DNA of 62,985 bases, counting the filler, from Folioceros fuciformis (Eukaryota), in the NCBI GenBank assembly GCA_049999805.1. It is 4 parts of 3 records of this genome, joined end to end, with 100 filler letters (N's around TTAATTAATTAA, not from the genome) between each part and the next. Parts side by side here need not be neighbours in the genome. Positions count along the whole stretch, not along the records: positions 49,860 to 57,005 come from JBNGIO010006367.1; 3 more parts are not named here. One strand, written 5' to 3'. Position numbers and translations under genes: made by a program. Of this stretch, positions 6,404-62,985 are shown piece by piece (within the stretch, counting starts at the first letter, position 1; each line of letters begins with the position of its first letter). The notes under the pieces are model-generated. The model saw nothing but the letters and a program-made list of their open reading frames with translations, did no database searches and was not told where the DNA came from.

Positions 6404-6539
6404 GGGACAACAGTGTGTCACAGTGGATGGTGGAAACACAGGTGCTGGCCTACATTAGGGACGCGAAGTTTGGCAAAGGCAGAGTCACACTAGCATCTAG
6501 GGTGGTCTTCAAGGCTCATCTCGTTTTTGGGCTTACTTA

Positions 6540-9600: not shown

Positions 9601-9679
9601 AACTCCAGTGGCCAAAGCAAGGAAGGCGACGCCAGTGGCCAAAGCAAGGAAGGCGCTGAACAAAGTCGTTCAGCGCATG

Positions 9680-9945: not shown

Positions 9946-10048
9946 GGTGCTGGATGTGCAAAAGGATGGCAATAGGTTTCATGGGAAGATCACCGCTGGC
10001 ATGGGGAACCACCCTGTGGCAATGCACAGTCAACACAGATTTGGAGCA

Positions 10049-14067: not shown

Positions 14068-14556
14068 ATGCCTCGCAGGAACAGGCAACCGGGAAGTAGG
14101 AGCTATAACAACTTTATCACAGAGAGGTTCATTAGAGAAAGGGATCGCCTCCAACGGCGTGGCCTGCTCTCCAGAAGTTCCTCTGTTGATCCAATTCCCC
14201 CACGCCTGCATCCAGACTCGCGCCAGCAAACGGCCAGAAATAGACCGGCCAGAGCCAAGCATACCCTACACCCAAATAGGCCACATTCCATCAGGCCTGG
14301 TAACAACAATTGGAAGAAGGGCTGCACCCATCAAGTTCAGGAAGACGGTGATGCCCAGGCTGCCTCTCACTGTCATCTGCTGAGCGTGATTCCGCTTGTA
14401 ACCCCACCAATCGATCACCAAGACCTGCAGGCTATGCTATTCCGTCACACTACCAAAAATCAGACTTTGCAAGCACAAATCCTTCTAGACATCCAAGAAA
14501 TCAAGGCACAGATCAATACCCTAGCAGTACACCTGAAGGGCACTCTTGTTTTTTGA
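14068..14556 (+). CDS. Copia-1 extra ORF upstream of gag (Arg-rich N-terminus, C-terminal heptad region), function unknown
   Basis: 162-aa open frame with AAAATG start, between PBS and gag. A positional counterpart exists in Copia-2. Confidence 0.45.
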   Translation: MPRRNRQPGSRSYNNFITERFIRERDRLQRRGLLSRSSSVDPIPPRLHPDSRQQTARNRPARAKHTLHPNRPHSIRPGNNNWKKGCTHQVQEDGDAQAASHCHLLSVIPLVTPPIDHQDLQAMLFRHTTKNQTLQAQILLDIQEIKAQINTLAVHLKGTLVF

Positions 14557-14867: not shown

Positions 14868-17800
14868 ATGGCCGGAAACCCAGATACCACCCTGGGACTT
14901 GGGCAGGCAACCACTGGCGCTTTGCTAGGTGCCACTGGTGCGAGCGCTTCTGCGCCATCTTCTTCAAGTGGCTCTGCGCCAACAGCCATCGCTCCAATTG
15001 CCCCTCCACCATCTGAGACATCCGGGCCATCATCAGCATCGACCACACAAGCTGTTACATCTACACATGCCACAAACATAGAGCCATATACCTTCACCGC
15101 ATCTGCGCAAGGAACTGGAACTGTGCCATCATACCTTCCTGCCACATCAGGAGCAGGCTTTTACAACCCATTGCCGAGCTTTGGAGTTGGCTTCGGGAAT
15201 CCTCTGCCTATACTAGGAGCAGGACCCGCGAATCCACTGCCAAGGGGAGGAGCTGGCTACGTGAATCCCTTCTCTGCATTCGGCACAGGACTTTATGGAC
15301 AAGCCCAGCCTCCTGTGCCCGCTGCAACTGCAGGCCCTCAGCAACCCTTGCCTCCACTTCTTGGAGCAGGATACGGTACTCCATACCCTCCAACCTATCA
15401 GCCTTCTTATACTGTGGAGTTCAAAGAACGTGACAGGTTCAACGGGAACAAGTACCCCGTGTGGAGCGTCCGCATGCAGGTAGCCCTTGATGCCAAACAC
15501 TTATGGAGCGTCGTGAGCGGCCAGTTTCAACAACCTGCCATCACTGCTCCTCAAGTGGACAAGGATAGGTGGGATAATGCTAACAATGTGGCACGAGCTT
15601 TGATCATCAGTGGCCTTGATGAGGTCCTTGTACCAGATGTTGCCTTCCTCTCTAAAGCTGAAGACATCTGGAACCAACTTTCACAAACCTACGATGTCAA
15701 AAACATTCTAACACTTGTAGCTGTTAGGGGCGAGTTGTTTACCCTTCGTATGAAAGACAGTGAGAAAGTTGCTGTCTTCATAGCCAAGTTTAGACATCTG
15801 CGTTCCCAACTTGCCTCTCTAGGTTCTCCCATGACAGAACTAGATGCAGTAGCTCACCTTTTGACTAGCCTGCCTCCAAGCTACCAGCCTTTCGTTTCCA
15901 GTTATGGAGCATCATTACATGATGCAGGAAAAGCTGCAGCTACAGGATAGCCAGTCTAGATTAGCTTCACTGATGTAGTAAGAGCTTTATTCCAAGAGGA
16001 ACAGTCACACAGCAGTTCATATTTCAACCATGGGCGCAATAAAACGGATAAAGTTCTGTTTACCTCTAAACCCCGATTTCCCAACAAGAATAGGAATACA
16101 TGTGCTGCTGGCCCCTCCAAGGACACGAAACCAGGACAGACCAAAAGAGTTGGCTCTTGTAACTGGTGCGGCTCCCCCGGCCACTGGGAGATGGAATGTC
16201 GTAAAAAGAAATCTGGAGAGCCTAAGAAGGCCGAGAAGGCCCACAAAGGGGCTGAGGCACATACGGTCTCCAAGGACAAACTTCCATCAGGCAAGCAGCC
16301 AATTGTGATGGTGACAACCTGTCTCTCAACATCCTCCAAGCATGATGCTTGGTACCTGGATTCGGGAGCAACAACTCATATCTGCCACAACAGGAGTTTG
16401 CTCAGTAACTTTGTTCCCATGCATACATCTGAGAAGAAGGAGTTGCCTTTTCCCTCTACCCTTGCATTCAGGACATCCAACGTCTTGGACCTCGTCCACA
16501 TCGACATCTCAGGGAAGATACACATACCCTCACTTGGTGGTTCTCTCTATTATTTGACCATCACCGATGACTACAGCCGCTACTCTTGGACTTATCCGAT
16601 GAAGAGGAAATCTGATACATTCCAGTTTTTCAAAGAATGGTTAGTCATGGCGCAACGACAGATAGGTTGCTACCTTCGCTGCCTCAGATCCGACAATGCA
16701 GAACGGAGTTGCCGAGCGCCAAAATCAGACCCTGCTCAGCATGACAAGGAGCATGTTAGCTTGGTTTGGCCTTAGCAAAGCCTATTGGGCAGAGGCTGTT
16801 GTTTGTGCAACCTACATCCTTAATAGGCTTCTCACCAAATCAGTTCCGGGACGCACACCTTATGAGGTCATCTGGAAGCGGAAACCTAGCTTGTTACATT
16901 TCAGGGTGTTTGGTTCCCCTGCATATGCCTTTATCCATGCAGAGCAATGTAGGAAGCTTGATGACAGAGCTCGACCTCTCATATTTGTTGGCTATGGTGA
17001 AGAGACTAAGGCTTATAAACTCTATGATCCACCAACCAAATCCTTGATATTTGCCCGAAGTGTGACTTTCAAGGAATTACTCCACCCTGCCCCCCGGACA
17101 GATGCTGTGGATGCTGAGTTTATGAGCTCCTCGTCCCCTTCCCAAGAGATCACAGACTTTGATGAATCTCTTTCTGAGTACCCACATGATGCTGCTTACG
17201 AAGCGCCTTCTGCTCTCCCTGTTTGGCCCCATCCAGCAGCCGGCAGTTCAGGGGGAGGAATTAACCTAGCATCTTAGTTTCACCACACAGCTCAGCAGCC
17301 ACAGTCGTATCAACCATCTCCACAACAGTTCCAACCTCAGCAGTCACAGCAGCCCACGCTAGTGCCCCCTGCACAGCAATCACAGCCTGTGCCACTTATG
17401 CCTCTACCTGCTACACTGCCTGCTATTCCACACGATGATGACTCTGAAGCACATGCTGCTAACGCTGATGCAGCGAATCCTGCGGATATAGATTCAGGGT
17501 CAAAACCTGATGACACTGCCGACACAGGAGCAGCTGATCATGCTGAAGTGGACACTTCTTACCAAGATCAGGAAGAGACACCTGGCCCTGTTGAGGATGT
17601 GACCCCGTCACTGAACCTGTTGTTGCAAAAAGAAGATACCCTACTAGATCACATCCTACTCGTGATCAATGGCACGCGAAACCTTATCAGCCAGAAGATT
17701 TCAAGCTTCCTCGGTCAGCCAGGCTGTGTGAAGCCTTCTCCACCAGTACAGCTCACCCTGCTAAACCCCGTACTTATAAGGAAGCAATATCTGGACATGA

Positions 17801-23437: not shown

Positions 23438-23718
23438 ACCAGCCACCGTCAGAACTATGGCAGAGGAGCATGCAACTCCCCTAGAATGCAGGAGGCAGCC
23501 GGCCTAGAACTGTCAACGGGAGGAGAGGGTAAGGACCTCTTTAGTAGGGGGACACATTTTGTTGTGACATAGGGATGAGGATACCCATGTTCTTCGCTTC
23601 CAATTGTATAGTGAGCGAGTGCTACCTCTAAATGTGCATGTGGTGGTTGGAATAAGAGGGTGTAGGAACTTCTGGTTGCACATCTTAAAACAACCACAGG
23701 GTGTTATCAGTGGTTCCT

Positions 23719-24632
23719 TGTGGTGGCAAAACCCCGGGCACTGATTGCCAACGGGTTCCACCTTTAGTGGCCACACTTATCCCACTATCGTTGAGACATT
23801 GGGTTTCGTTCCCACGAAGGAGCGATGGGGTTCCTTGCTGTTGTGGATGGAGGGTCGGACTTGATCAACTCGATGATGGATTCGAGGGCTCCCCTCCAGC
23901 TCCGATCAAGCGTAGGACAGGCCTCGCTGTCCGGCGGTCAGCTGCACCTCTCTCGGTGCCCACAAACTCACTCCAGTCACTAGCACTGTCCAGTCAGGTT
24001 GGCGGATTTTGGCAAGCAAGGAGGTAAGCTGAATTGGCAGGGCTGTCTGGGTTGGCGGGCACGCAGATGGTAGGAAGGCTGGGGCGGCAAGCTGGTTGGC
24101 AAGGCGTTGCGCTACAGGCAGGGGATCTAGGCGGTTCCACCTTTCCCCTCGAATAGCGGGCTTGTTGCCCGATGCTATTGAATAGGTCCGATTTGGAGGT
24201 CTGGCTAGTGGGGAAGCTGGTGAAGGAAGTACTGAGGCCTTCCAGCCTCACCCCAGGTTTCGGGAGCCAGAAGCAGGGGGGAATTGAGAGGCTGCGGATA
24301 GTTGCGATGGTGATCCAGTTGTGAACCTCCAAAGTTTGGGGTAGTAGTTTGTTTTGGTTGAAAAAGGGTTAATAGTGGTATGGTTTGGTTTTCTTTTTCA
24401 ACTTATTTTCCCTAATTTTCCTTGATTTTCTGGTCATTTTTCCTATTTTTCTTTGTGCTAATTAGGTTAATTGACCAGGAAATAGTTGGTTTGGTTATAA
24501 GAGTGGGTATAGGTTTGGTCCCAGACCTGGGAAGGTTTAGGTTTGGTACCAAGCCATAGGGTTGGGAAAGTTTGAGTCTAGGTCTGGTGATTAGTTTAAT
24601 ATTAATTAAAGATATATAATATTAAATGATTA
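23719..24632 (+). mobile_element. Partial LTR of the same family as 4710-6403, truncated by the contig end
   Basis: Begins TGTGGTGGCAAAACC. The first ~264 bp are homologous to the reverse complement of 6120-6403. Confidence 0.65.
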
Positions 24633-38337: not shown

Positions 38338-41042
38338 TTATCCCTTAATGAGGAAACTATGCACCATGCCGTCCATGTCTGTCCACCAGCTCTGACCTGG
38401 CTCCTTCCATGCCCTCATTTCTGTCCTTCAGGCCTGCATCTCCTGTGCCTGCTCCCACATATGAGCACCGGTGTAAATGTTGGACATCAACACATATCTT
38501 GCACCATCACGCTCGTCTCGCTTCACAGCTTGGTCAAAAGCATGGCGTCCGACCTCAACGTTGCTCCACTTTTGACAGGCGTCTAACGGGGTGTGCCAAA
38601 CTGCGGCATCAGGCGGTAAGGGCATCAAGCGCCTCGGTAAGCTGGCCTGCACGGCCCAAGAGATCCACGATGCATGTGTAGCGTTCCACGCCGGGAGTAA
38701 TGCTGTAGTGTGTGCTCATAGAATCAAAGTACTCCCTGCCCTCCTTGACTAGACCCGCATGACTGCATACAGTTAGGATGCTAAGGAATGTAGAACAGCT
38801 GGCTGTATTCCTTCTTTCTCATTCTCTCCAGCAAATCGAAGACGACTTCAATGTCTCCTTGACAGGTGTAGCCTGCAATCAGTGAGCTCCAGACGACAGT
38901 GGCATCAAACACCTGCTGCGCATCGACCATACTCCCAGACTTCCGTACATGTTTATCAGACTGCCGGCTACAAACTCCACGGCTTAAAGCCCTTGTTCTC
39001 GAATCTGTGCATGTAGCTGCCTCCCCAGATGCAGAACTACCAAATCTGCGCATGCCTGCAACAGGCACACCAACGCTACAGAATTGGGGTAACGTGATGC
39101 CTTCTCTTTGCATGGCACTGTAAAGACGAATGGCTTCCACGCCCATACCTTTGCTGGGAATACCCTGCTATCATGGCATTCCATGTTACCACATCTTTCT
39201 GACGAAGTCCGTCAAACACTCTCTGAGCATCTTCCAAGCTGCCACATTTTGCATACATGTTCAACAGACTGCTACCTACAAATCAATCACCTTGATATCC
39301 TTGTTCTCTGATTTGAGAATGAAGCTGCTTCCCCGTCTCTAATGCCAGGATGCCCACGCTGGCACATGCCAGCAGAAGATACACAAATGTCACTGAATTC
39401 GGTACAGCACCACCACCTTCTTCCATAGCATTGTGAAGCTGAAGGGCTTGCTGGCCCATGTCCTGAAAGGCAATACCCGGCTATTGAGGGCATTCCACGT
39501 CACTACGTCCTTTTCACCAAGTTCGTCAAACACACGTTGAGCATCTGTCAAGCTACCGCACCTTGCATACATGTTCACCAGGCTGCTGCCTACAAACATA
39601 TCAGCTTGATGCCCTTGTCCTCACATTTGCGAATGGATCTGCTCCCCCTTCTCCAATGCCGTGTTGCCCACACTTGCACACGCCTGCAGATGTCACAGAA
39701 TTGGGTACCGCATTGCCTTCTTGCATAGCTGCATAGAGACGACGGGCTTCCTGGCCCATGCCCAGCTGGGAATATCCTGCGATCATCGCATTCCATGTCA
39801 CCACATCTTTTCGACCCAGTCCGTCAAAAACGCCCTGAGCGTCCTTCATGCTGCCACTTTTCGCATACATGTTTACCAGACTGTTGGCTACAAACACATC
39901 ATCCTGATGTCCTCTCTGTCTAATTTGCGCATGAAGCTCCTTCCCCATCTCGAACGCTGTGGTGCCCACACGTGCACAAGCCTGCAGAAGACACACGTAC
40001 GTCACAGAATCAGGAGCTCAAAGTCCCTCATCTTCCATAACCCTGTACAGACTAAGGGGTTCCAACCCCATGCCCTTCCGAGAGAACCCTGCTAACATAG
40101 CATTCCATGAGACCACGTTTTTTCCCCAAGTCCGTTAAACACATCCTGAGCCTCTTCCAAACTACCGCACTTTGCATACATGTCCACCAAGCAACTACAA
40201 ACGAATAAGTCAGGCTCGACGCCAGTGGCCAACACATCAGCATGCACTCGCTGCCCAGCTTCCAAGTCCGATGCCCTTGCACAAGCTTGAAGGGCTGCCA
40301 TGAACACATGGCCGTCTGGCTTCGTACTTGAACAGCGCATCCTGCGATATAGTTGTATGGCATGCTTGTTCTGTCCACATTTAACATGCGAAGAAATGAT
40401 AGAACACCACATAAAAGTATCTGGTTTGGGAACCAAGGTAAACACATCCATGGCGTCTTGCAACCTCTCACACGAAGCATACATTCGAAGGACATGATTG
40501 CACAGGAACGTGTCCGACTGGTACCCATGTTTCACCGGTAACGCATGTGCTCAGCGACCCAGCACGAGATCCTTTTTCTCCACACACTTCTTCAGGACAG
40601 CGTAGAACAGAGAGTTAGAAATACAATCGACTTTCTGCACCAAAACTCCCAAAGCCTCAACAGCCTCAGTGACATGCCCCGCATGGCAAACCTTTGTCAC
40701 GGTATCTGCAGTAATGCCCCCATCATGTACTGTAAGCTCAGTCCCGCCGGGATCCGGATCTTCCCGTGATCTCCAGTTGCATTTCCAGACTTTGCCACCA
40801 CCCTTGCGGGTAGACCCGTCTGTTGCTGAACATACTCTCAGACGGGCTGTCCCTCCAGCATACCGGCTGCAACAGGCGGCTTGGCTGTTTGGCAGAGGAT
40901 GGTCTTTGGATAACAGGCGAGCGGGAGCTACCGTTCCCCGAATACTCATTAGCCCACCACTTTGTCTTGCCCACCAAACCTGTCCGGACAACGGGTCCTG
41001 TTGACCAGTGAGTAACTCCGTTGCAACCCAGGACACAGCCAT
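38338..41042 (-). pseudogene. PLS-class PPR RNA-editing-factor gene with E domain and WW-type PG box, disrupted by stops and frameshifts
   Basis: Repeated LVxMYAKCGSLxxAxxVF..DVVTWNAMIAGY motifs spread over several frames; TGA at 40551; E-domain YVLMSNIY; KEPGQSWWTD..VHSF followed by a stop. Confidence 0.9.
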
Positions 41043-49759: not shown

Positions 49760-49859
49760 NNNNNNNNNNNNNNNNNNNNNNNNNNNNNNNNNNNNNNNNN
49801 NNNTTAATTAATTAANNNNNNNNNNNNNNNNNNNNNNNNNNNNNNNNNNNNNNNNNNNN
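49760..49859. other. Artificial contig linker
   Basis: N run + TTAATTAATTAA + N run. Confidence 0.98.
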
Positions 49860-50263
49860 AGCTCCAGAGTTAGATCTGTTCCTCGGCATTTTCCCTATAA
49901 TAAAATCACCAGCGTATGGTGCTCTGATACCATAACTAAAATATAGCACGCTGGTATAACATCAAGATAGCTTGACATTCTGTGCATACAGCACAAAGGG
50001 GGCACGAAGTTGACCAGCACACGAAAACGTTGAGCAAGAAGAATGATGATATATATTAACAATTAATGAAGATGTATTTATACTAAATGTAGTCTATTAA
50101 CCCTAAATAATATGACCTAAAGGTAAGTAGGGATATTTAACCGTCGGGGTTATTAATCCAACACTCCCACTTAATCTCGACGGGTTAAAATCAGGGAAAT
50201 CCACTTATCCAAACATTTTTTTTTTTTTTTTTTTTTTTTTTTATTCCCGTTCCGCAATCCAGA

Positions 50264-50734
50264 ATGGAAGAAAATGGCATAAACAGCAATCCTGTTGCCT
50301 GGCTCGTATTGTCACTGCTGCTGCTAGAAGTCACGATCTTCACATTGCTTGCTGCGCCGTCGATTGTTGGCTGCTTCATCACCATGCCGCGGGCTATTAG
50401 ACATGGGTTATCCAGCCAAAGGTGCCCGCAAAGGAGGGATCTGGAAGAAGGATCTCAGGGTTCCAACAGACCCGAACCAGCGCGGAAGCTTTGGCCTACC
50501 ACTGCTCACAGGCGCACGCTGCTCAACCTAGCTAGGGCCGACGCTGAGTGCGAGGAACTGGGCAGACTGCTGGAGGAGGCCCAGGCACAAACTGCTCGAC
50601 TGAGGCAACAAGCTGAAGCTGGTGTGGAAACTAGGGACGATGACAGAGAGCTAACAGTGGAGGAGTACAGAGAGATGTTGAACGAGTTGGCTGCCCAAGG
50701 CTTGTACAATCCGCAGAAGGGAAAGGACACATAA
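50264..50734 (+). CDS. Copia-2 antisense ORF: N-terminal transmembrane helix plus coiled coil, 156 aa (partial second copy at 56680-57005)
   Basis: ATG start; PVAWLVLSLLLLEVTIFTLLAAPSIVGCFI, then RRTLLNLARADAECEELGRLLEEAQAQTARLRQQAE; lies between pol and the PPT. Confidence 0.6.
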   Translation: MEENGINSNPVAWLVLSLLLLEVTIFTLLAAPSIVGCFITMPRAIRHGLSSQRCPQRRDLEEGSQGSNRPEPARKLWPTTAHRRTLLNLARADAECEELGRLLEEAQAQTARLRQQAEAGVETRDDDRELTVEEYREMLNELAAQGLYNPQKGKDT

Positions 50735-51066
50735 CTCAAAAAAAAGTAAGAACTGTCTCCATGCCACAGGATTAGAACAGAGTGTTGCTTCATCCACTGA
50801 GGACACAAAGTGATGGCTGGGCTTGGCTAACCGAACTCCCACTGCAGGTGAACAGAGTCCTCAAGCTGGAAACGTGAGGACGTAGGAAGGCTAAGTCTGT
50901 TGCAAACTCTGTGGGTTTGCCCACCATGTAAGCACGCAATCATGCAGTAAAGCACTTGCTGAAATCTATGTGACCTGAAACCTCTACATGCGATTAATGT
51001 TTGTGTTTGGGCAGAGGTTTAGTGTTTTGGTTTCCAAAAACCAACAGGTTAGGTGTCACCTTGGAT

Positions 51067-54000
51067 TTACTTCACTCCTGTTCCTGGCAGTAAGTAGCTG
51101 AAATCTTGTATGCCAAGAGAATCCATGTGTTGTGAGTGCTTGAACTTTGGCAGAGCCTTCGTCATAATGTCTGCTACATTATCAGCAGTAGGGATATACT
51201 TGAATTGAATCACTCCTCGTGCTACTGTATCTCTAACATAGTGATGCTTAATTTCTATGTGCTTTGTCCGCGCATGAAAGCAGGGATTGGCCACGAGAGC
51301 AATTGCAGAGTTGTTGTCGCAATAGACAGTTGTTGGCTCAAGCTGCTCTAGATGAAGATCCTTGAGATAAGACCTCTCCCACTCAGCTTCTTTTGCTGTA
51401 TCTATCAGTGACATATATTCAGCCTCTGTTGATGATAATGCTATTGACGTTTGTTTCTTGCAGGACCAATTAACAGCTCCTCCAGCTAATAAGAAACAGT
51501 ATGTTGATAGGCTTTTACGTGAGTCAATATCAGAGGCCCAGTGTGCATCTGTATATGCAGAAAGAGATAGCCCAGAGGGGAGACCAGCTTGATAGAAAAT
51601 GCCATAGTGCATGGTGCCTTTCAAGTAGCGATATATGCCCTTCAGTGTTGCCCAATGAGCGCGGCCTGGTTTCTCCAGGAATTGTGAAACACTGCTGACG
51701 GAGAAGGCAATATCTGGCCGTGTCCAATTCGATATGAAAATCAGGCATCCAACAGCGTGTCTATAAGGTACCTTTTCCATATCAGAGATTTCCTCAGCAA
51801 TAGAAGCACATTGGTCGGCTATCAATTTTACTCCCACAGAACCTGGAGTGCTGACGGGTCTTGCTTGATCAAGCTGGAAACGCTTGAGGATTTCTGTTAG
51901 GTACTTTTTTTGGTGGATAACAATTAAACCCTTCTCTCTGTTGCGCAGAACTTGTACACCAAGACAGAACTGTAAGGCTCCCACATCCTTCATCACAAAC
52001 TTGGCTTGCAGGAGGTCCTTGACCTTGTCTAGAATAAAGGTGTTGGTGCAAGCAAAGATACAATCGTCAACGTACACAGCAAGGATACAAAATGCGGAGC
52101 CATCAACTAAGTAATACACAGATGAGTCAGCTGCACTTTGCACAAAACCTAGGGCCTTTAATTCTGCATCCAGTTTCTCGTTCCATAGCATAGCGCTTTG
52201 TTTAAGCCCGTATAAGGCTTTGAGCAACCTAAGTACCTTGTTAGGATAGCACTTGTCCACATAGCCTTGTGGCTGCTCTCCATGTATATTTCCTCCTTGA
52301 TCTCTCCATGCAAAAATGCTGTGCATACATCCATTTGATGTAGTTCCAGATTGAATTCGGCTGCAATGGCTAACAACATCCTTATGGACTGTGCCCTGAC
52401 GACAGGGGAGAAGGTCTCCTGGTAGTCCAAACCAGGAACCTGGGTAAAGCCCCGAGCACAAAGCCTGGCTTTGTACCTGACGATCTCGCCTTCAGCGTTC
52501 AATTTGGCCTTGAAAACCCATTTGCATGTAACAGCCTTCCGTCCGGGTGGCAAGTCTGTAAGTTCCCATGTCTTGTTTTTTAAAATAGAGTGGTATTCCT
52601 CCTCAACTGCAGCTTGCCATTTTTCTGCATCTGGACCAGCATAAGCAGCATCCATGGAAACAGGATCTAACAGCAGAGAGGAACTACCAGCAGTGGCAGC
52701 ACATGCAGATGGCCGAAAGTCATGGGATTCATAAGGAGGCTCAGCCCACTGTGAGCGAGGAAGACGAGAACGAGGTGGGTTACGTCTAGGAGGGACTATG
52801 ACGTAAGGGTCCTCCTCTGCGACTGGTGGGACGGGATCAACATCTGGCAGAGGGTGAACTTCAGGGGCTATGATGGGGTCAACATCCTGAACTGCAAAAT
52901 CTGTGTCATCTAGGGGATCCGGCAGGGCAGGATCAGCATCTGCAGGAGGATCATGAAGCTGATTGTTAACGGGAACTTGTGGATTAGCTGCAGGTGGATT
53001 TACAGGTACAACTGTAGGTTGCTGGATAGCAGGGACTGGACCTTGTGGAAACTGAATAGGTTGAGCATCAAAACCAATCAGATTAGGAGTGAAGTCTGCA
53101 TCATCTGAGGATTCAGAGTCTGTGTCAGCATGTACACCAGATTTGTTCGAAGAACCAGAATCTAATAGCTCTTTAAAAACAACACTGCGGGCTAAAACTA
53201 GAGCAGAGGTAAGTGGGTCAATCAGTTTATAAGCTTTTGCCTCCTCACTATACCCAATGAAAATTAAAGCTCTAGACCTGTCATCTAATTTTTGACGTTT
53301 GGCTTGTGGAATATAGGCAAAAGCTGGAGATCCAAAAACCCTGAGGTGAAGAATGCTCGGCTTACGGCCCCATATCATCTCATAAGGAGTCTTCCTTTGA
53401 AGAGAGCTGGTAAGAAGGCGGTTGAGAATGTATGTTGAAGTCACCAACGCCTCAGCCCAGTACTCTGCTGGTAAGCCAGCCCAGCTAAGCATACTCCTTG
53501 TCATGCCCATAAGTGTTTGATTTTTACGCTCCGCGACACCGTTTTGTTGTGGTGTGTAGGGAACGGTGAGCTGCCGAAGGATGCCTTGATCTTGAAGATA
53601 CTGATCAAATTGAGTGTTACAAAATTCTGTCCCATTGTCCGTGCGAATGCACTTGAGAAAACAGCCTGTCTACTTTTTTGCCATGGGCAGCCACTCCTGG
53701 AAACAGCTGAATGTGTCACTTTTCCTTGCAATTGGATATGTCCAAGTATAACGGCTAAAATCGTCGGTGATGGTCAGGTAATAGGAAGAGCCGCCAATGG
53801 ACTTAGTCTGCAACTTGCCAGAGATGTCAGAATGTATGAGATCAAGGACTGCTGAAGAACGAAAACTTGAATGCGGGAAAGGCTTCTCCCGCTATTTGGC
53901 CAACAAGCAGGCTTCACAAATCGGTAAGTCCTTGAAACAAGAGGGTAAAGATTCAGCGTAACAGTCTTCTGTAGACATCTTGACTAAAGTGTTTTTGTTG

Positions 54001-55514
54001 ACATGGCCGAGCCGAGCATGCCACAATTTAGCTTGTTCAGTTGCTGGAAGGTAGGCAAGAGTGGTTGCTGCAGCAACAGGCCCTGAGGTTGAAGCCTCAC
54101 ACAGCACATCCAGTCGATAGAGATCATAATCGGGAATGCCTCGACCAATGCATTGTGTAGCAGAGGCACGCCTGAAAATTTCACAAGTGGTGCCAAAGAA
54201 ACGAAACTCGAGGTTGAAATGTTGGGCAAGGAGTTTTACAGAAAGGAGATTTTTCGCCATTCCCGGCACATATAGAATTCCTGGAACATGCAAGACTGAG
54301 TTGTTAGTCATAATAAAACGGCAAGTACCATATCCCTTAATTGGTAAGCTTGTCGATTTTTGCTCGTCTCCAAGAAGAACTGATTGAGTAGAATTGTGAA
54401 TCTCCTTATAGTTGCTAAATAAATGCTTGTTCTTGCAGATATGCACAGTGGCGCCAGAATCCAAAAATCAGCTGCCAGGATCACTTGATGAAGAGGAAAG
54501 ACAGATGGTATATAGCTTAACCACAGCTTTGCCTCCTTCAGTCAAAGGTCTCTCCTTGGCAATAGAATTCACCTCTGGTTTAGGTCGACGAGGCTCGCCT
54601 GCCTTCTTGCGGCGATAGTCTCTCTCCCAGTGACCTGGTGTGTGGCACCAATTGCAGCTACCAGGTTTCTTTGTACTCGTGGAAGAGGATCCAGCAGTGG
54701 AGGTTTGGCTATTTTGTCGGCCTCTACCTCCTCTGCCTCTCCCCCTCCCAAAACCTCCATGCTGAGCAGAGGTATAAAGGACCCTGTTGGTTCGTAACTT
54801 TCCAGAACCGCTGGGGTTGAGTCGAAACCGGCTCTGCTCCTCTTGAAAGAGGGCAGCAATAACACTCTCAAGAGTGATGCCTGCTGCTTGACCAGCTGTC
54901 ACATTCTGGCCAGCAATAGCGAAAGGTCCATTCTGAAGGGAGACAAATGTTTGATATGATGCAGGCAAGGTGAGAAGAAAACGTACAATGGCATCCTCCT
55001 CAGACATCGTAGAGTTCAACTGAGCAAGGCGGGAGCGAAGGTAACGGAATTTGCTTGTGTGGGCAGCCACACTGTCACCCTCCCGCATCTTCAGAGTGTA
55101 GAACTCATGCATAGCTGCAGATTTTGAAAGCATTGTCTTCACGGCATATGTACCAGTAAGCTGATCCCATATGTCTTTTGCCTGCGTCAGGGACTCGACG
55201 TTAGGAATGATAACTTCATCTAACCCGTAGATAATGATGGCAACAGCCACACTGTTCAACGCATTCCACTTGTCGACATCAGCCTGAGTAACAGCAGTAG
55301 CTCCAGCTGGAGTAGCAGCTCTAGCAGCTGGAAGAACGGGTTCTGGATAGGTACCATCTACCACTGTCCAAACACCTCTAGCTCTTAGTGTAGTTTGCAT
55401 GCGAACACGCCAAATTTCAAAGTTTGTACCATTGAACCTATCTTTATCCTTGATTTCTGATGTGAAGGTTGGCGTGGCTGCCATGACTACTGGACTATAT
55501 GCAAGAGTTGACAT
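51067..55514 (-). pseudogene. Copia-2 gag-pol with three in-frame stops (54468, 53892, 53670) and one frameshift (~52280)
   Basis: DRFNGTNFEIW, CNWCHTPGHWERD, FLDSGAT, LWHARLGH, IRTDNG, QQNGVAER, QMDVCTAFL, VYVDD, EAEY, CDNNSAI, ADIMTK. Confidence 0.95.
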
Positions 55515-55756
55515 ACATGCTTGCCAAAACCCAAGGCTGAACAGGTCTGAACAGGTAAACAGTTACAGATCTAAAAAGTTTTTTTTTTTAGGGTTTCTAA
55601 TTCAGCAGAAAACTTAAGCTAACCTGCTGACTTTCTATCTAGGGCTTGTGAGATCAGAAAAACGGTTAATAACCGCCTGTCATGTGGCAGCGGAAGGTTC
55701 ATATGAAAAAGGCCTCTACAACGCAAGATCCCTAGACAAGAACAGAGGATATCAAA

Positions 55757-56305
55757 TCAATCGAAGTGCTCCTCATTAGAGGAGCGAAGGGTCTTGTTCA
55801 AGATCTGTAATTGCCTGGTCAGTCTGCCAACTTCTGAAGAAAACTTGGTGACAATTGTGTGGATTTTCAGATCTGTTGAGTCTAGCCGTTTGGAAAAGGA
55901 CTCCTGACGCTGAACTGCAGCATTCAATGTACCCTCCAGGTCTTGTAGCCTGGGCTGAAAATCCAGAAATGTGTCTGATGAGGTACTGGTGGTCTTCGTG
56001 CAGGATTGTAGGGGTAAGGTAGGACGTCTCAAGAATGGTCTGCCAGCAGATTGATCTGAATTGAAAACTCTGCCACAAGTATCACAAGATTTGAATGTAG
56101 CAGATTTCTTTGTTGAACGCCTAGAATCACAGCGATTCTGACAATTCCGATAATTCTCCAAAATTCTGAGATCACGTTCTGCCTTAGATTCAGCCTCAAA
56201 CCAAGGGACGCTTGAAGGGGCAGATACTCTGCCAATAGGTCGTGAGAAAGCTTTAACAAAACCTCCTCTACCTCCAGCTCCAGAGTTAGATCTGTTCCTC
56301 GGCAT
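55757..56305 (-). CDS. Copia-2 extra ORF upstream of gag, 182 aa (basic/Gly N-terminus, Cys pairs, C-terminal coiled coil)
   Basis: AAAATG about 30 nt after the PBS; MPRNRSNSGAGGRGG..CQNRC..CDTC..RLQDLEGTLNAAVQRQESFSKRLDSTDLKI..VGRLTRQLQILNKTL. Confidence 0.55.
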   Translation of the reverse strand: MPRNRSNSGAGGRGGFVKAFSRPIGRVSAPSSVPWFEAESKAERDLRILENYRNCQNRCDSRRSTKKSATFKSCDTCGRVFNSDQSAGRPFLRRPTLPLQSCTKTTSTSSDTFLDFQPRLQDLEGTLNAAVQRQESFSKRLDSTDLKIHTIVTKFSSEVGRLTRQLQILNKTLRSSNEEHFD

Positions 56306-57005
56306 TTTCCCTATAATAAAATCACCAGCGTATGGTGCTCTGATACCATAACTAAAATATAGCACGCTGGTATAACATCAAGATAGCTTGACATTCTGTG
56401 CATACAGCACAAAGGGGGCACGAAGTTGACCAGCACACGAAAACGTTGAGCAAGAAGAATGATGATATATATTAACAATTAATGAAGATGTATTTATACT
56501 AAATGTAGTCTATTAACCCTAAATAATATGACCTAAAGGTAAGTAGGGATATTTAACCGTCGGGGTTATTAATCCAACACTCCCACTTAATCTCGACGGG
56601 TTAAAATCAGGGAAATCCACTTATCCAAACATTTTTTTTTTTTTTTTTTTTTTTTTTTATTCCCGTTCCGCAATCCAGAATGGAAGAAAATGGCATAAAC
56701 AGCAATCCTGTTGCCTGGCTCGTATTGTCACTGCTGCTGCTAGAAGTCACGATCTTCACATTGCTTGCTGCGCCGTCGATTGTTGGCTGCTTCATCACCA
56801 TGCCGCGGGCTATTAGACATGGGTTATCCAGCCAAAGGTGCCCGCAAAGGAGGGATCTGGAAGAAGGATCTCAGGGTTCCAACAGACCCGAACCAGCGCG
56901 GAAGCTTTGGCCTACCACTGCTCACAGGCGCACGCTGCTCAACCTAGCTAGGGCCGACGCTGAGTGCGAGGAACTGGGCAGACTGCTGGAGGAGGCCCAG
57001 GCACA

Positions 57006-57105
57006 NNNNNNNNNNNNNNNNNNNNNNNNNNNNNNNNNNNNNNNNNNNNTTAATTAATTAANNNNNNNNNNNNNNNNNNNNNNNNNNNNNNNNNNNNNNN
57101 NNNNN
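57006..57105. other. Artificial contig linker
   Basis: N run + TTAATTAATTAA + N run. Confidence 0.98.
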
Positions 57106-60100
57106 GTTAACTAACCTAATGACTGGACCTATTTAAGTTATTTACTGTTTCACTCCCACTCAGGAGTTAGGCTAGTTATATAGTTTTAATAACTATCCTA
57201 AAGCATGCGTTCTAAGAAACTTCACCTAAACAAAAACTTCTAAGAAACTTGACGCTAAAAAAAGAACGTTATCCTCTTCAACGGGACCCTAAAAATCAAA
57301 AAAAGTCTTCAGTCTTCTCCTTCGCTGTCGCGTCCGTCCAAGTCGCCGCCGCCGTGTGTGGCTGAGCTTTGCGAGCTGCCTGCCGGGCATGGCTTCGCCC
57401 TACCTGCCGGCAACGCCCGCGTGAAGGTGCCGCCGCCTGCTTGTGATGACCGCCCGATGCTGCCGCCAGCTGGAGATCGCCGCACGACGCCGCCGCCTGA
57501 TGGAGATGGCCGCCCGACTCCATTTCTAGCTGCTGCCAGTTCTGTTGAGCTGGATTCGCCATCGCCAGGTGAGCTTGAACCGGGGGCGGATGCGCCAGCT
57601 GTGCGCGAGCTAGGAATGTCCACGCCAGCTGCTGATCCACTCCAGATTGACTTACCTGATGCTGACCGCAATCCCATGCCGAAAGCGTGCTGTTGATGCT
57701 TGGCCTTGCTCAAGGCCTTAGTTAGAACATCTGCCGTCATCAGATCTATAGGGCAGTAGACAACTTGAACCATTCCGCTTGCAACTTGTTCTCTAATAAA
57801 GTGATGCTGTACCTCCAGGTGTTTGGTTCGAGCATGGAAGCGAGGATTCTCAGATAGTGCTATGGCACTTTGATTATCGCACATCAACCTCAGAGGTAAC
57901 TGCTGTGGAGCTCCCAACTCTGCGAGTGCTCCCACTGCCCATATAACTTCCTTACAAGCTTCAGTTAGGGATTTGTATTCAGCCTCCGTGGAGGATAGGG
58001 CCACTGTTGGCTGACGTTTGCTGCACCAGGAAATTGCACTGCCAGCTAAAAGGAATACATAACTGGAAATGGAGCGTCTACTGTCCTGGTTCCCTGCCCA
58101 ATCAGCGTCGCTGAAGGCTGTAAGAGTAAGAGCTTCAGGTGCATCAGCACTGTAGAGTAAGCCCCAGTCCTCAGTGGCCTTTATATACCTGAACAGCCTT
58201 CGCATGGCATGCCAATGAGCCATTGCTGGATTTGCTAGAAATTGTGATAGCATGCCAACAGTAAATGCAAGGTCTGGACGGGTTCCAAGCATGAGATACA
58301 TCACGCTGCCACTGAGGGATGCATATGGGAACTCAGCCATGAGGTATTCTTCTTCAGCAGTGAGTTCAGCTTCTCCCACTTCTGCCTTATATTTCACATT
58401 CTGCTCAAGCGGGGTTGAGACTGGTTTACAGTCAGTCATTTTAAATCGTGCTAGGATTTGTCTGATGTACTTACTCTGATGCATAAAGATTCTTTGTCTC
58501 TTTCTATCTCTATTTATCTGCATGCCCAGGCAGAAGGCGAGGGCTCCGGCATCCGTCATCCTGAATTCTGACCGCAGCTGGTCTTTCAACTCTTCAATCA
58601 TGCTCCAGCTGTTAGACATAATTATGATATCATCTACGTAGATGGCCAGGGCCAAAAAATTCTTTCCTTTGCCTCTTTTGATGTAGACATTGCTATCAGC
58701 ATGCAATGGCATGTAGCCATGTGAGACTAGAAAATTATGGATGCGTGCAAACCATGCACGTGGACTTTGCTTGAGTCCGTAGAGTGTTTTCTTCAATTTG
58801 CAGACATACTGATGTTTGTCATCTTGTGCTATAAGGCCAGCTGGAGGTTCCATGTATATTTCTTCATTCAGCTGACCATACAAGAAGGCCGTTGTCACAT
58901 CCAGTTGTTCTAATTCGTAGTCGTGGACTGCTGACAAGGCCAGGAAGAGTCTAAGTGTACTCATCTTCACTACCGGACTAAAGGTGTCCGTGTAGTCTAC
59001 TCCAGCAACTTGGGAGTAGCCTTTGGCTACTACTCTGCCCTTGTAACGTTCTATGCTTCCATCAGATTTCAGTTTAACCTTGAAAACCCATTTGCTGCCC
59101 ACAGCTTTCCTTCCGGGTGGCAGCTGAGTAAGTTGCCAGGTTTCATTCTCCTTGAGGGAATTCAACTCCGATGCAATGGCCTTCCTCCAATGATCAGCAT
59201 CTGGACATGAGAGGGCTTCCTCATACGTTTGAGGCTCAAAATGCTCTGCAGATGCTGCCAAACAGTAAGTCAAGTTTGACTTGGAATGATCTGCCTTTTT
59301 AGGATGCCTCCAATCATGGACCTTGTAAAGGTCAATCTTCCCTGCAGTGGACCTCACAGGTCTCTCCCTTGGTGGAGTTGGAAAACTAACAATCTTTTTC
59401 TTCTTGCGCTGCAGAATTCCAGGATTGGACACATTTTGATAGCTTGAAGGTGTAGCAAACAAGTCCCCAGGTGAGACCACTCCTTCCATATCGAAATCGC
59501 CAAATATTATGGGCTCATCCTCACTCTGCGATGGCCTGATTGGTGTTTGAATGCTTGGCGTGGAAGGTATTTGTTGTACAGCTGGTACTACTACTGGTGG
59601 GATTGGTGCTGGTGCTGCAGGCACTGGGTCTGCTAGCACATAAGAGTCTTCTTCTTGCTCTTCGTCTGACCCTTGAGGTGAGTCAGGGACAGCAACTCCC
59701 ACTGAGTCATGTGACTCAACGCCTTCTACAAAAATAACATCTCTTGAGTGCATTACTCTTTTGGTACGTCTGTCTATTACCTTGTACCCTTTTATGCCAT
59801 TTGTGAATCCAATGAATATGCATGAGGTTGACTTAGGCTCAAACTTCTTTCTCAGGTCCTTGTGTACATGCACATACACTGGAGCTCCAAACACTCTCAT
59901 GTGGGAAATGTCAGGTTTTACTCCAGTCCACACTTCAAATGGTGTTTTGCCTTGTACAGCTGAATGCTCTATCCGGTTTTGAATGTAAGTAGCATACGCG
60001 ACTGCCTCAGCCCAATAACATTTGGGAAGTTTCGCATATGACAGCATGCTAGATGCTGAAGTTTCCAAGGCCTTGTTTTTATTTTCTGCAACTCCGTTTT

Positions 60101-62985
60101 GCTGAGGAGTTCTAGCATTGGTTAGCTGTCTAGCTATACCATGCTGTGTGCAGTAGGCTTGGAACTCACCGGATATATATTCTCCCCCATTGTCTGATCG
60201 GAGAGCTTGCAATGATTGTTCAGTTTGTGTTTCTGCCCACGCCTTATACTCCTTGAAGCATTCCAGGGTGGAAGACTTTAGCCGCATGTGGTAGACAACA
60301 GTGAACCTTGAGAAATCATCAATGAAGGTAATAAAATAAATTTTGCCTCCAAGAGAAGTGGGAAGTGGCCCACACACATCGCTGTGTACCAGCCCGAGCA
60401 CTCTGGTGGCTCTCTCAGCTGGTTCAGTTGGGAATGCACTGCGGTGATGCTTCCCAATGACACATGCATCGCATACTCCGAAATCGGACAATGTATCCAA
60501 CTTCAGACCATCTACAAGCTTATTTTGATGCATTCTGACTAGCTTTTGGAAGTTCAAATGTCCTAGCCTAAGGTGCCACAAGTATGTGAGCGATGGCCTG
60601 ACCATGTGAGCTGTGCTTGTTGCAGCGGTAACATGATCCTTCTTCACATCCAGATGGTAGAGGTCATCAGATCGCAAACCTCCAGTGGCCATCAGTTTAC
60701 CATCTAGTGTTTCTACTACACATCTCCTACCACCAAAGCAGATGTAACATCCAGATTCGTCAATCTTCCTCACCGATACCAGGTTTTTGGCAAGCCCTGG
60801 TACGTATAAAACATCTGGTATCTCCAGATGTTGATCTGGTTCCAAATCAAGCTGAATTGTTCCATGACCTTCTATCTTATGTGTAGAGTCATCTCCTAAG
60901 CAGACAAATCTCTCACCTTCCATGGGCTGCAGGCTAGTGAAGTAAGAGTGATGCGGTGTCATATGCTGCGAGGCCCCCGAATCTATGTACCACGCATGTT
61001 GTGCCTTGGTTGCAAAACAGGTAACCACCAATGCTGAATCGCTTCCTGCATGTGTACTTCGATCTGGCCCATCATTTACACATGCTGTGAACGCTTTAGA
61101 ATATTTTTTCATAGTGACAGCCAGATTGCCACCTGAATGGCTGCGTCCTGACTCATTTGCCAACCTCTTCCTGCAGACCTCCCATGTGTGATTTGGTATG
61201 CCACAAAATCCACATGGTGCTTTGGGTCTGCTGCCATTGAATGAGGAAGGTCGGGATGGGAAGCCTCGACCTCGTCCCCTGCCTCTAAAGGCAGGTCTGC
61301 CTCTGCCTCTACCTCTGCCACCTCCAAACTTATTGGTGAACAGGGCTTTGTCTCCTGCCGATATGGAGGATGTCGCCATCTTGCGGCGGTTCTCCTCAGT
61401 GAGCATTGTGGAAATCACGCGGTTAACCGTGATTGCTGCTACGTTTTGCAGGGACTGCACAACATTTGTCCAACTTTCAGGCAGGTGAGACAGTAGAATG
61501 ACTGCCATCACTTCTTCTTCAAGCTTGAAACCTAGTGCTAGGAATTTGGTCTGCCAGCTCCTCCATGTGAGCACAAATTCTGCTACATTGTCGGTTTCAG
61601 CCATTCTTAACCCCACAAAGGACTTTAGTGTGTGGGTCTTTAGAATGAGGTCTGATGCATCGTACACCTCTAACAATTGTTGCCACAATGCAGCTGCAGA
61701 TGTGATGGACCCCATCAAAGTGGCAATGTGTGAGCTCTTTACGCTCATGGTGAGAGTGCTTCGTGCTTGCTGATTCGAAGCCTTCCATGCTGCAATGTCG
61801 GCGGATGCAGCAGTTGTTGGTGGTTCAGGTGTTGGAATTGCTGCACCGACGAACTCCCACAGGTTCCTTGACTTCAACAACTCTTCCATTCTAAACTTCC
61901 ATAGGTTGAAGTTAGTGCCATCAAATCTGTCCTCTTTGGCTAGGGCAGTCGGCACATTTGATTGTTGACCTTGACCTGCCATGACACTGGGATGGACTGG
62001 ATGGACACACTAAATTGGGTGAAACCAGACCTTGCAGGAGGAATCTTTGTCTAATGGGCCCTCTACTTCTAGGGTGACTTCAAGATTGATCATTTCAGCA
62101 AAACAGTACTCAGAATGGATTTTATGAATTATATAACATGCATAGGTGTAGACGTAGTTGAGAGTTGGTGACAATGGTTGCTGTTTAAAAAGGGTGTCTA
62201 GCTTAAATAGGATGACCTGAAAAACGTGATCAGGTGTTGAAGGAAGGTTGATGACAAACTTGGAGACAGAAGGGGGAGACATCTTCACTTCACAGGTAGA
62301 TATCTGAAATGTCAACTTGGGTCCAATCGTAGTCCTCCCCTGCAGGAACTCCTTGTACTAGGTTTGTCGCCATCAGCTCTAGGATTATGCAAAGTCTAAT
62401 CCAAACTTGCTGCCATCTGTTTCCATGCGACAGCGATTCTTGATACTCTCTCTCAGACCTCCAATAGTAGGCAGCTCTTGCTGCCTCTCTTATTGCACGC
62501 CTGAGCAGGCGCTCTCTTCTCCGTGATCCAGGCATGGTGCACAAGGAACCTGCACTACATTCCTCCAAGAAGGGCTCCTAGAGTTCATCTGTGTGCTAAT
62601 TCTTGTGCTCCACTTGCAGGTTCTACATAAAGAAGAGAAGAGCTTCTGCTGGCGTGCTCTGTCCAAGAGAAGATCAAAACTTTGCTACGATCAGTCCTCC
62701 TTGGGAGAGCAGCATTTGTGCAGCATCTCCCAAACCCCTGCAGGCGCACCCATTGGCCAACGTAAATTAATCAAAAAAAAAACAAGAGACCCGAATTCCG
62801 AGATGGAAATAGGATTCTTGCAGGTGGTGCGATTGCAAACGGGGCAGGCTACTCGATCCATGGCTCCGATACCATGAGACGATTTTTTTTATTGCGAGTG
62901 CTCGAACGCACCTTGTGTGTGTTCAGGACTCCGTGAACGGTTACAACGACATTACCTGTCGTGTTAGGGTTTCGTCTTAATTAAG
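57106..62985 (-). mobile_element. Ty1/Copia element (Copia-3), internal region complete, both LTRs partial
   Basis: The 5' LTR ends ..GTCTCA at 62875, followed by PBS TGGTATCGGAGCCA (62861-62874). PPT GAGTGGGAG (57153-57161) is followed by the LTR start TGAAAC at 57152. Confidence 0.93.
57309..61982 (-). CDS. Intact Copia gag-pol polyprotein, 1557 aa
   Basis: Single ORF: DRFDGTNFNLW, CGFCGIPNHTWEVC, WYIDSGAS, LWHLRLGH, VHSDVCG/LRSDNGGEY/QQNGVAE, YVDD, FSDADWAG/EAEY/CDNQSAI/ADVLTK. Confidence 0.97.
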   Translation of the reverse strand: MAGQGQQSNVPTALAKEDRFDGTNFNLWKFRMEELLKSRNLWEFVGAAIPTPEPPTTAASADIAAWKASNQQARSTLTMSVKSSHIATLMGSITSAAALWQQLLEVYDASDLILKTHTLKSFVGLRMAETDNVAEFVLTWRSWQTKFLALGFKLEEEVMAVILLSHLPESWTNVVQSLQNVAAITVNRVISTMLTEENRRKMATSSISAGDKALFTNKFGGGRGRGRGRPAFRGRGRGRGFPSRPSSFNGSRPKAPCGFCGIPNHTWEVCRKRLANESGRSHSGGNLAVTMKKYSKAFTACVNDGPDRSTHAGSDSALVVTCFATKAQHAWYIDSGASQHMTPHHSYFTSLQPMEGERFVCLGDDSTHKIEGHGTIQLDLEPDQHLEIPDVLYVPGLAKNLVSVRKIDESGCYICFGGRRCVVETLDGKLMATGGLRSDDLYHLDVKKDHVTAATSTAHMVRPSLTYLWHLRLGHLNFQKLVRMHQNKLVDGLKLDTLSDFGVCDACVIGKHHRSAFPTEPAERATRVLGLVHSDVCGPLPTSLGGKIYFITFIDDFSRFTVVYHMRLKSSTLECFKEYKAWAETQTEQSLQALRSDNGGEYISGEFQAYCTQHGIARQLTNARTPQQNGVAENKNKALETSASSMLSYAKLPKCYWAEAVAYATYIQNRIEHSAVQGKTPFEVWTGVKPDISHMRVFGAPVYVHVHKDLRKKFEPKSTSCIFIGFTNGIKGYKVIDRRTKRVMHSRDVIFVEGVESHDSVGVAVPDSPQGSDEEQEEDSYVLADPVPAAPAPIPPVVVPAVQQIPSTPSIQTPIRPSQSEDEPIIFGDFDMEGVVSPGDLFATPSSYQNVSNPGILQRKKKKIVSFPTPPRERPVRSTAGKIDLYKVHDWRHPKKADHSKSNLTYCLAASAEHFEPQTYEEALSCPDADHWRKAIASELNSLKENETWQLTQLPPGRKAVGSKWVFKVKLKSDGSIERYKGRVVAKGYSQVAGVDYTDTFSPVVKMSTLRLFLALSAVHDYELEQLDVTTAFLYGQLNEEIYMEPPAGLIAQDDKHQYVCKLKKTLYGLKQSPRAWFARIHNFLVSHGYMPLHADSNVYIKRGKGKNFLALAIYVDDIIIMSNSWSMIEELKDQLRSEFRMTDAGALAFCLGMQINRDRKRQRIFMHQSKYIRQILARFKMTDCKPVSTPLEQNVKYKAEVGEAELTAEEEYLMAEFPYASLSGSVMYLMLGTRPDLAFTVGMLSQFLANPAMAHWHAMRRLFRYIKATEDWGLLYSADAPEALTLTAFSDADWAGNQDSRRSISSYVFLLAGSAISWCSKRQPTVALSSTEAEYKSLTEACKEVIWAVGALAELGAPQQLPLRLMCDNQSAIALSENPRFHARTKHLEVQHHFIREQVASGMVQVVYCPIDLMTADVLTKALSKAKHQQHAFGMGLRSASGKSIWSGSAAGVDIPSSRTAGASAPGSSSPGDGESSSTELAAARNGVGRPSPSGGGVVRRSPAGGSIGRSSQAGGGTFTRALPAGRAKPCPAGSSQSSATHGGGDLDGRDSEGED

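Follow-up and report, generated by a model that had tools for sequence, protein, structure and literature searches.

A candidate accessory reading frame ahead of gag in long-leader Ty1/copia elements of Folioceros fuciformis

Extra reading frames in known elements and the Folioceros locus

Among the long terminal repeat (LTR) retrotransposons, those of the Ty1/copia type are considered the simplest in structure. Here we describe two related elements of this type, Copia-1 and Copia-2, in DNA of Folioceros fuciformis (GenBank assembly GCA_049999805.1), both of which carry a sense open reading frame (ORF) between gag and the primer-binding site (PBS). These frames are named ORF0-1 and ORF0-2. The window, that is the whole stretch of DNA analysed, has a length of 62,985 nt and consists of four parts of three records joined by filler letters; all positions count along it, and Copia-2 is contained in the part from record JBNGIO010006367.1 (positions 49,860 to 57,005). 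ORF0-2, and less certainly ORF0-1, may represent a genuine, lineage-restricted and fast-evolving 5′ accessory gene of a small plant Ty1/copia clade with a leader of 0.8–1.1 kb, a reading that we favour tentatively and rate at slightly below even.

LTR retrotransposons of plants are well known to carry extra ORFs, which are heterogeneous and mostly without conserved domains (PMC7264820, PMC6317226). A survey by Neumann et al. (2019) covered 5410 plant copia elements of 16 lineages and considered ORFs of at least 250 codons only (PMC6317226). In its Additional file 5 extra ORFs of the upstream type (eORF-5′F) are listed for 33% of Tekay, 23% of TatII and 21% of Ogre elements, while 14 of the 16 copia lineages carry a dash; for Bianca and Ikeros, values of a few per cent are listed, the column assignment of which is ambiguous. 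The background statement of the initial annotation, according to which copia elements normally have one gag-pol ORF and upstream extra ORFs are typical of Ogre/Tat gypsy elements, agrees with this file. ORF0-2 and ORF0-1 resemble eORF-5′F as defined in that survey by their upstream position, the same orientation and their non-tandem nature, but with 182 and 162 codons they fall short of 250 codons, so ORFs of this kind would have been missed.

ORF1 (eORF-5′F) of the Ogre elements (Ty3/gypsy, Tat) is, like ORF0, a sense ORF between PBS and gag with no assigned function and no conserved domain, and it is heterogeneous between families (PMC6317226); one Ogre family has an ORF of 1527 bp upstream of GAG (PMC2533021). 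In contrast to the gypsy eORF-5′F, the carrier here belongs to Ty1/copia and the ORFs comprise 162–182 codons. Retrosat2 of rice likewise has an ORF0, situated after the 5′ LTR and before the retrotransposase ORF, which according to its descriptions was not found in other organisms (PMC3485330, PMC4093653). This element, compared by description only, differs by its LTRs of more than 3.2 kb. The well-known extra ORF of copia elements is the env-like ORF of SIRE (Sirevirus; eORF-3′F), which is fast-evolving as well: 74% of the SIRE elements carry an extra ORF, and these ORFs form 19 groups that hardly resemble each other (PMC6317226). The SIRE ORF differs in being located downstream of pol and in being much longer, and SIRE elements have an average length of 9.9 kb compared to a period of 6.4 kb here.

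[quoted passage not shown] Pararetroviral leader ORFs are short and arranged around a stable stem-loop for ribosome shunting, whereas ORF0-2 reaches 182 codons and folding of its leader does not surpass that of shuffled sequences. Copia elements use alternative RNA isoforms to adjust Gag relative to Pol expression, as in the shGAG strategy of the Arabidopsis Ty1/Copia element EVD (PMC5580714). In EVD, however, the intron reportedly belongs to the pol region rather than to the leader and gives rise to no extra protein.

A limited literature search yielded no copia element in which an ORF precedes gag. Extra ORFs as such are already known; new here is that a copia element combines a short 5′ sense extra ORF, a long leader and an antisense ORF at the 3′ side. 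Should a small, conserved 5′ gene and a kilobase leader prove true, some copia lineages would have accessory functions and a more complex control of translation or splicing than assumed, and annotation thresholds would currently miss shorter extra ORFs.

The two upstream ORFs and their leaders

ORF0-2 occupies positions 55757..56305 on the minus strand, comprises 182 codons and starts with MPRNRSNS. Extent, length and start are those given in the initial annotation, and only the strand had to be corrected to minus. The ATG (56305) is placed 43 nt after the first base of the PBS and is the first AUG past it, which agrees with the claimed location just after the PBS. The second proposed ORF, ORF0-1 (14068..14556, plus strand), was found as described, with 162 codons and the start MPRRNRQP; its ATG follows the first PBS base at a distance of 273 nt. 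Between the stop codon of ORF0-2 and the gag ATG of Copia-2 lies a spacer of 242 nt (55515..55756, minus strand), which holds three AUGs (55702, 55683, 55518) and twice a pyrimidine-rich ...TTCAG (55537-55556). In Copia-1 the spacer to the gag ATG (14868) has 311 nt, so that the distance of 240–310 nt between ORF end and gag was given correctly for both elements.

Chance length was assessed by dinucleotide shuffling of each leader and counting of shuffles with an ATG-initiated ORF of at least the observed length. An ORF as long as ORF0-2 appeared in 1 of 5000 shuffles of the Copia-2 leader (p about 2e-4), and one as long as ORF0-1 in 53 of 5000 shuffles of the Copia-1 leader. We consider it very unlikely that ORF0-2 is accidental, and the length of ORF0-1 is above chance at a borderline level. 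The earlier caveat that such short ORFs can stay open by chance therefore hardly applies to ORF0-2 and keeps its weight for ORF0-1. No stop codon is present in the frame of ORF0-2, compared to 6, 12, 13, 6 and 12 stops in the other five frames (9.9 expected); for ORF0-1 the other five frames contain 6, 8, 4, 8 and 9 stops (6.7 expected) and its own frame none. The antisense strands of the Copia-2 and Copia-1 leaders are ordinary in this test (2643 and 299 of 3000 shuffles, respectively). A third Ty1/copia element of the window, Copia-3, also has a long leader. The longest ORF in it (90 aa) is equalled in 437 of 5000 shuffles and thus not significant. Another ORF of this leader (62290..62535, minus strand; 81 codons) starts with MPGSRRRER, unlike ORF0-2, and its length is within chance.

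The leaders of the Copia elements in the window are unusually long, with PBS-to-gag distances of 822 nt in Copia-2, 1061 nt in Copia-1 and 880 nt in Copia-3. For comparison, 20 distant Copia loci from metagenome contigs (22–29% identity), found by gag alignment of the three elements, served as a control and not as family members. A PBS-like motif is present in 18 of these 20 loci, and the gag match begins 94–181 nt past the motif in all 18. Sixteen of the 18 have an ORF of at least 50 aa, which starts 43–158 nt past the PBS and continues into the gag match. In six metagenome loci gag begins 43 nt past the PBS start, at the very spot of the ORF0-2 ATG. The exact PBS of Copia-1 and Copia-2, TGGTATCAGAGC, occurs in 13 of the 20 loci. 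A gag-based search of viral contigs revealed no related loci.

The N-terminus of ORF0-2 is rich in Gly, Arg and Ser and includes the motif GGRGG. As claimed, both N-termini are basic: within the first 30 residues ORF0-2 has 6 Lys and Arg and no Asp or Glu, and ORF0-1 has 9 Lys and Arg compared to 3 Asp and Glu. Four Cys residues at positions 55-77 of ORF0-2 read as CX3C-X14-CX2C. Single-sequence modelling with AlphaFold2 predicted a C-terminal amphipathic helix at residues 117-180 of ORF0-2 (predicted local distance difference test, pLDDT, up to 96 in the block, mean 61.5) and helices at residues 13-30 and 117-160 of ORF0-1 (up to 94, mean 62.0). The C-terminal helix begins at residue 117 in both models, the N-terminal and middle parts are mostly disordered, and overall confidence is low. 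Residues 139-173 of ORF0-2 show a heptad pattern with hydrophobic residues at 9 of 10 a/d positions versus 3 of 25 other positions, which none of 500 shuffles equalled. In ORF0-1 hydrophobic residues take 7 of 10 a/d positions, a value equalled by 130 of 500 shuffles and not significant. Thus, the heptad-like C-terminus attributed to both ORFs, and with it the heptad periodicity expected of a coiled coil, is supported for ORF0-2 and not for ORF0-1. Prediction of ORF0-2 residues 105-182 as a homodimer, run without controls, gave a score of 0.02, the mark being 0.32. Tandem Repeats Finder detected just one weak 22-nt repeat in ORF0-2, the frame of which is not built of tandem repeats, and no tandem repeat in ORF0-1.

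If the ORFs are genuine, the ORF0 product would be a small basic protein of 160–180 aa in three parts: a disordered Arg/Gly/Ser-rich N-terminus starting from MPR(R)NR, a middle of low conservation and, at the C-terminal side, a long amphipathic helix. The full-length RNA of the element would serve as its template for translation, in Copia-2 after short upstream ORFs in U5/PBS that end 5 nt ahead of its AUG, and gag-pol would then be reached by reinitiation, leaky scanning or from a spliced RNA. Such a protein may have a role in the life cycle of the element. Judging by composition, the basic N-terminus might bind nucleic acids and the helix might allow self-association.

Relationship of the ORFs and competing readings of the leader

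Both ATGs are embedded in AAAATGCC, the start context that the initial annotation had pointed out. The common start region extends over positions 56278..56309 on the minus strand in Copia-2, with its counterpart at 14064-14094 on the plus strand in Copia-1; it consists of AAAATGCC, 1-4 nt and AGGAACAG and encodes MPR(R)NR. When contexts from −4 to +27 were compared, the one of ORF0-1 matched that of ORF0-2 better than any other of the 2204 further ATG contexts that the two strands of the window contain. Besides the PBS, the leaders of Copia-1 and Copia-2 have nothing else in common in a blastn comparison at E < 0.5. End-to-end alignment of the two proteins gave z = 2.07, equalled by 101 of 3000 shuffles, which is marginal; the score exceeds that of 70 out of 70 other open-frame segments of 162 aa from the window, and, with the roles exchanged, of 50 out of 51. 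An in-frame match of 16 nt (QDL, codons 121/118) was rejected as a homology signal and is taken as chance (blastn, E = 1.9).

The homology check that had been proposed for the two upstream ORFs gave a mixed outcome, in which ordinary searches failed and the start-context rank and the end-to-end alignment provided weak hints. Homology of ORF0-1 and ORF0-2 is therefore weakly suggested, and the comparison reads as a conserved start region followed by a protein that has diverged beyond proof. In terms of the favoured reading, an accessory gene, the ORF0 protein would evolve so fast that just the start region stays recognisable between the two families. Extra ORFs of LTR retrotransposons are heterogeneous and without conserved domains even inside a lineage (PMC6317226).

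Several results weigh against an accessory gene, in addition to the insignificant heptad of ORF0-1. BLASTP found no similarity between ORF0-1 and ORF0-2 (E = 19), though the gag proteins are 46% identical, and the local alignment score is below the shuffle mean (z = −0.48). In a codon model trained on the gag-pol pieces, with stops skipped, ORF0-2 reaches 0.056 compared to 0.065 in another frame, and the frame of ORF0-1 is not preferred either (−0.035); the true frame was best in 10 of 10 gag-pol pieces used as control. An apparent codon-usage signal seen with stops scored vanishes when stops are skipped, and codon usage was consequently rejected as support for coding. U5/PBS of Copia-2 contains four AUGs, one with a strong context, so that the ORF0-2 AUG is the fifth after the likely transcription start; the short ORFs of these four end at 56352 or at 56311, the latter being 5 nt ahead of the ORF0-2 AUG. 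Ten AUGs, three in the LTR and seven past the PBS, precede that of ORF0-1.

Database searches add to these points. ORF0-2 had no match at E ≤ 0.001 among 1.84 billion representative proteins, and word-indexed searches of 5.8 billion proteins gave no relative of ORF0-2 or ORF0-1. In Pfam (hmmscan, E ≤ 1) ORF0-2 had sub-threshold matches only, to DUF4559 with 17.2 bits (27 required) and to Snapin_Pallidin with 13 bits (29.6 required), and ORF0-1 had no match at all. The domains known from other extra ORFs, namely Athila ORF-1 (PF03078), the plant mobile domain (PF10536) and Transposase_28 (PF04195), were not matched in Pfam by either ORF. A sequence search of the PDB gave nothing meaningful for the ORF0 proteins, and in the ESM Atlas the best score of ORF0-2 was 0.78, to Streptophyta clusters and under the level that counts. 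The negative protein searches are weak evidence, since the gag of Copia-2 itself finds just one relative, 28% identical, in the same protein collection within the searched length range. Evidently, the Copia lineage is poorly represented in the searched protein collections.

Two DNA sequencing runs of one sample (X1 and X2) contain the Copia-2 element (0.74 and 0.70 of the sampled words). At 80% likeness, contigs of these runs include diverged copies over ORF0-2, e.g. 377 nt with 64 differences and no gaps, or 365 nt with 56 differences and three gaps. Of the differences in ORF0-2 by which the window copy departs from the contigs of these runs, the five with the best support comprise four non-synonymous and one synonymous exchange. 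The same ratio is seen in gag; the differences therefore represent private decay of the window copy and are uninformative on selection. A run guessed to be RNA contributed a single 38-nt piece on the element, which says nothing on expression.

These data have to be weighed against the alternative that the leader is non-coding and serves regulation or packaging, in which case the ORFs are relics or accidents without protein function and the shared stretch of about 30 nt is a cis-acting RNA or DNA signal that contains an ATG by chance. The codon model fits this alternative, as the ORF0 frames are not preferred while all ten gag-pol controls are, and so do the dissimilarity of the two proteins past the first residues, the 4 and 10 upstream AUGs before ORF0-2 and ORF0-1, and the absence of any ORF0 homologue from the database searches. 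Furthermore, ORF0-1 is marginal in length and Copia-3 has a long leader without a significant ORF. It does not explain well why a 182-codon ORF arose in just one of 5000 shuffles, and a 35-residue heptad pattern unmatched in 500 shuffles is unexpected for an accidental frame. Structured RNA is not in evidence either: folding was not unusual relative to shuffles for the spacers of Copia-2 (z = −0.37) and Copia-1 (z = −0.93) and for ORF0-2 (z = −0.77), and Rfam gave no match over the whole window. On balance we regard a non-coding leader as the main alternative, though a rather unlikely one. If it applies, the ORFs are a warning that ORF length (p about 2e-4) and predicted helices can convince without comparative support.

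That conservation between the two leaders is confined to the start region would also fit a leader that is mostly intron. In this case the ORF0 AUG and the first ~10 codons would form a shared first exon spliced in frame to gag-pol, and the body of ORF0 would be read from unspliced RNA or never. A GT, the putative donor, follows the A of the ATG by 34 nt in Copia-2 (56271) and by 28 nt in Copia-1 (14096), past the first 9-11 codons and in the same codon phase. The candidate acceptor of Copia-2, TGTTTACCTGTTCAG followed by A (55546), is a good one shortly ahead of gag and would create an open in-frame junction with gag, as would the AG at 14860 in Copia-1, and splicing would delete every AUG in between. 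A precedent is provided by RTBV, which splices a leader upstream ORF to the distal ORF IV (PMC5902531). Many GT/AG pairs were screened, however, and about one third are in frame by chance. The donors agree moderately, at 5 of 9 positions, with the consensus, and the Copia-1 acceptor is poor (...TGAG). Moreover, joints in the DNA contigs across this region lack canonical minus-strand ends. We consider an intron of this kind improbable.

The contrast in quality between the two ORFs, ORF0-2 being far more convincing, would fit if ORF0-2 were a piece captured from a host gene or from some other mobile element (transduction) and ORF0-1 an unrelated accident. Sense-orientation gene capture by LTR retrotransposons is documented (PMC7264820). 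However, no similar protein exists among the 1.84 billion representatives, no second copy of ORF0-2 was found elsewhere in the window, and the start region shared with Copia-1 argues for an ancestral feature of the leader rather than a recent capture. Capture is the least likely of the readings and in our opinion very improbable.

Carrier elements, antisense ORFs and further features of the window

The window is plant DNA, in which genes for pentatricopeptide repeat (PPR), PAP2, cupin and metallophosphatase proteins are present beside transposons. It contains three Ty1/copia elements, Copia-1 on the plus strand and Copia-2 and Copia-3 on the minus strand. Copia-1 gag (14868..15950, plus strand; E = 3.4e-27) and Copia-2 gag (54468..55514, minus strand; E = 1.8e-30), which ends at an in-frame stop, both match Pfam Retrotran_gag_2. 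Pairwise identity between Copia-1 and Copia-2 is 46% for gag, 51% for the reverse transcriptase (RT)/RNase H pieces and 56% for the integrase pieces, which confirms them as two related Copia elements; Copia-3 is farther off, with 33-45% identity to both. The 1557-aa gag-pol of Copia-3 contains the domains Retrotran_gag_2 (41-212), Pol_BBD (340-421), gag_pre-integrs (449-521), rve (535-635) and RVT_2 (955-1202), and has a long Ser/Gly/Ala-rich tail after RNase H. The pieces of Copia-1 and Copia-2 align to this polyprotein in the same domain order, with the integrase before RT as is typical of Ty1/copia.

Copia-1 is delimited by a 5′ LTR (13611-13794, plus strand) and a 3′ LTR (19739-19916, plus strand) that are 94.5% identical, and GCCCC flanks both LTRs on their outer sides as a 5-bp target-site duplication. 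Its PBS (13795-13806, plus strand) directly follows the 5′ LTR, and its pol is broken into many pieces. Ahead of the conserved DRFNG start of copia gag, Copia-1 gag carries an N-terminal extension of ~180 aa (14868-15407, plus strand) rich in Pro, Gly and Ala, which is absent from Copia-2 and Copia-3.

For Copia-2 a 5′ LTR is proposed at 56349..56579 (minus strand), which starts with TGTTGG and has TATAAATA at 56498. Its start was set by analogy with the LTR start of Copia-1 and by the preceding purine tract, and the boundary is putative. The PBS (56337..56348, minus strand) lies directly after the LTR, where 16 nt are identical to Copia-1. The pol region downstream of gag is present in at least three pieces. 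Two features are private to the window copy and read otherwise in the contigs of runs X1/X2, namely the in-frame stop at the gag/protease boundary (54468) and a substitution at the last Cys of the CCHC knuckle of gag (54616). On positions 54400-57005 differences of the types C>T and G>A (135 and 140, respectively) are far more numerous in a further run, X3, than in X1/X2, as in a bisulfite-converted library; if so converted, it could yield methylation data for these elements.

A repeat of 730 nt with 100% identity (49860-50589 and 56276-57005) spans LTR and PBS and reaches 30 nt into ORF0-2. It is not an LTR pair, given this content and the fact that both copies abut gaps. The gaps, at 49760-49859 and 57006-57105, are written as 44 N, TTAATTAATTAA and 44 N. 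The contig of 7146 nt wraps round a unit of 6416 nt, as a tandem element or a collapsed repeat. Since the repeat results from this wrap, the LTR boundary of Copia-2 is not proven by it, the age of the element cannot be read from it and dating by LTR identity is meaningless for Copia-2.

Copia-3 (57309-62874, minus strand) has an intact gag-pol at 61982..57309 and a leader that holds 16 AUGs; the gap at 57006-57105 truncates the element at the 3′ side, and its 5′ LTR runs beyond the window. Its PBS is the variant TGGTATCGGAGC, compared to TGGTATCAGAGC directly after the LTR in Copia-1 and Copia-2. The latter is presumably complementary to the 3′ end of tRNA-Met. A match of the PBS to tRNA-Met is given in general terms for such elements (PMC6317226). 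A tRNA scan of the window detected no tRNA genes.

Between pol and the 3′ LTR Copia-2 has an antisense ORF of 156 aa (50264-50734, plus strand) with a hydrophobic N-terminal stretch (Kyte-Doolittle maximum over 19 residues 2.39), the length of which is equalled in 11 of 3000 shuffles; a second, partial copy is located at 56680-57005. In the corresponding region of Copia-1 an antisense ORF of 78 aa (19430-19666, minus strand; 194 of 3000 shuffles) also starts hydrophobic and membrane-like (maximum 2.35). A tblastn search with the Copia-2 antisense ORF found no counterpart in Copia-1. Of the three-ORF layout put forward in the initial annotation, the combination of a 5′ sense ORF and an antisense ORF was confirmed for Copia-2, but as a feature of a lineage it is conjectural, the Copia-3 leader having no significant ORF. 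By analogy with RTBV one may imagine a copia clade with a retrovirus-like three-gene layout of 5′ ORF0, gag-pol and a 3′ antisense membrane ORF. Its transcripts would share the ORF0 AUG and ~10 codons as first exon; the ORF0 protein would come from unspliced RNA, and leader-spliced RNA would give gag-pol in frame with the same AUG. We look upon this as a long shot. If true, the Pseudoviridae would gain an accessory gene and a mode of expression that are both new.

Outside the Copia elements, a tandem repeat of ~300-nt units with 70-78% identity (38905-40212) overlaps PPR-repeat ORFs on the minus strand. An inverted pair of 288 nt with 84% identity (6120-6407 and 23715-23982) is of unassigned nature, and a 38-nt tandem array at 9642-9984 was detected in at least seven overlapping registers.

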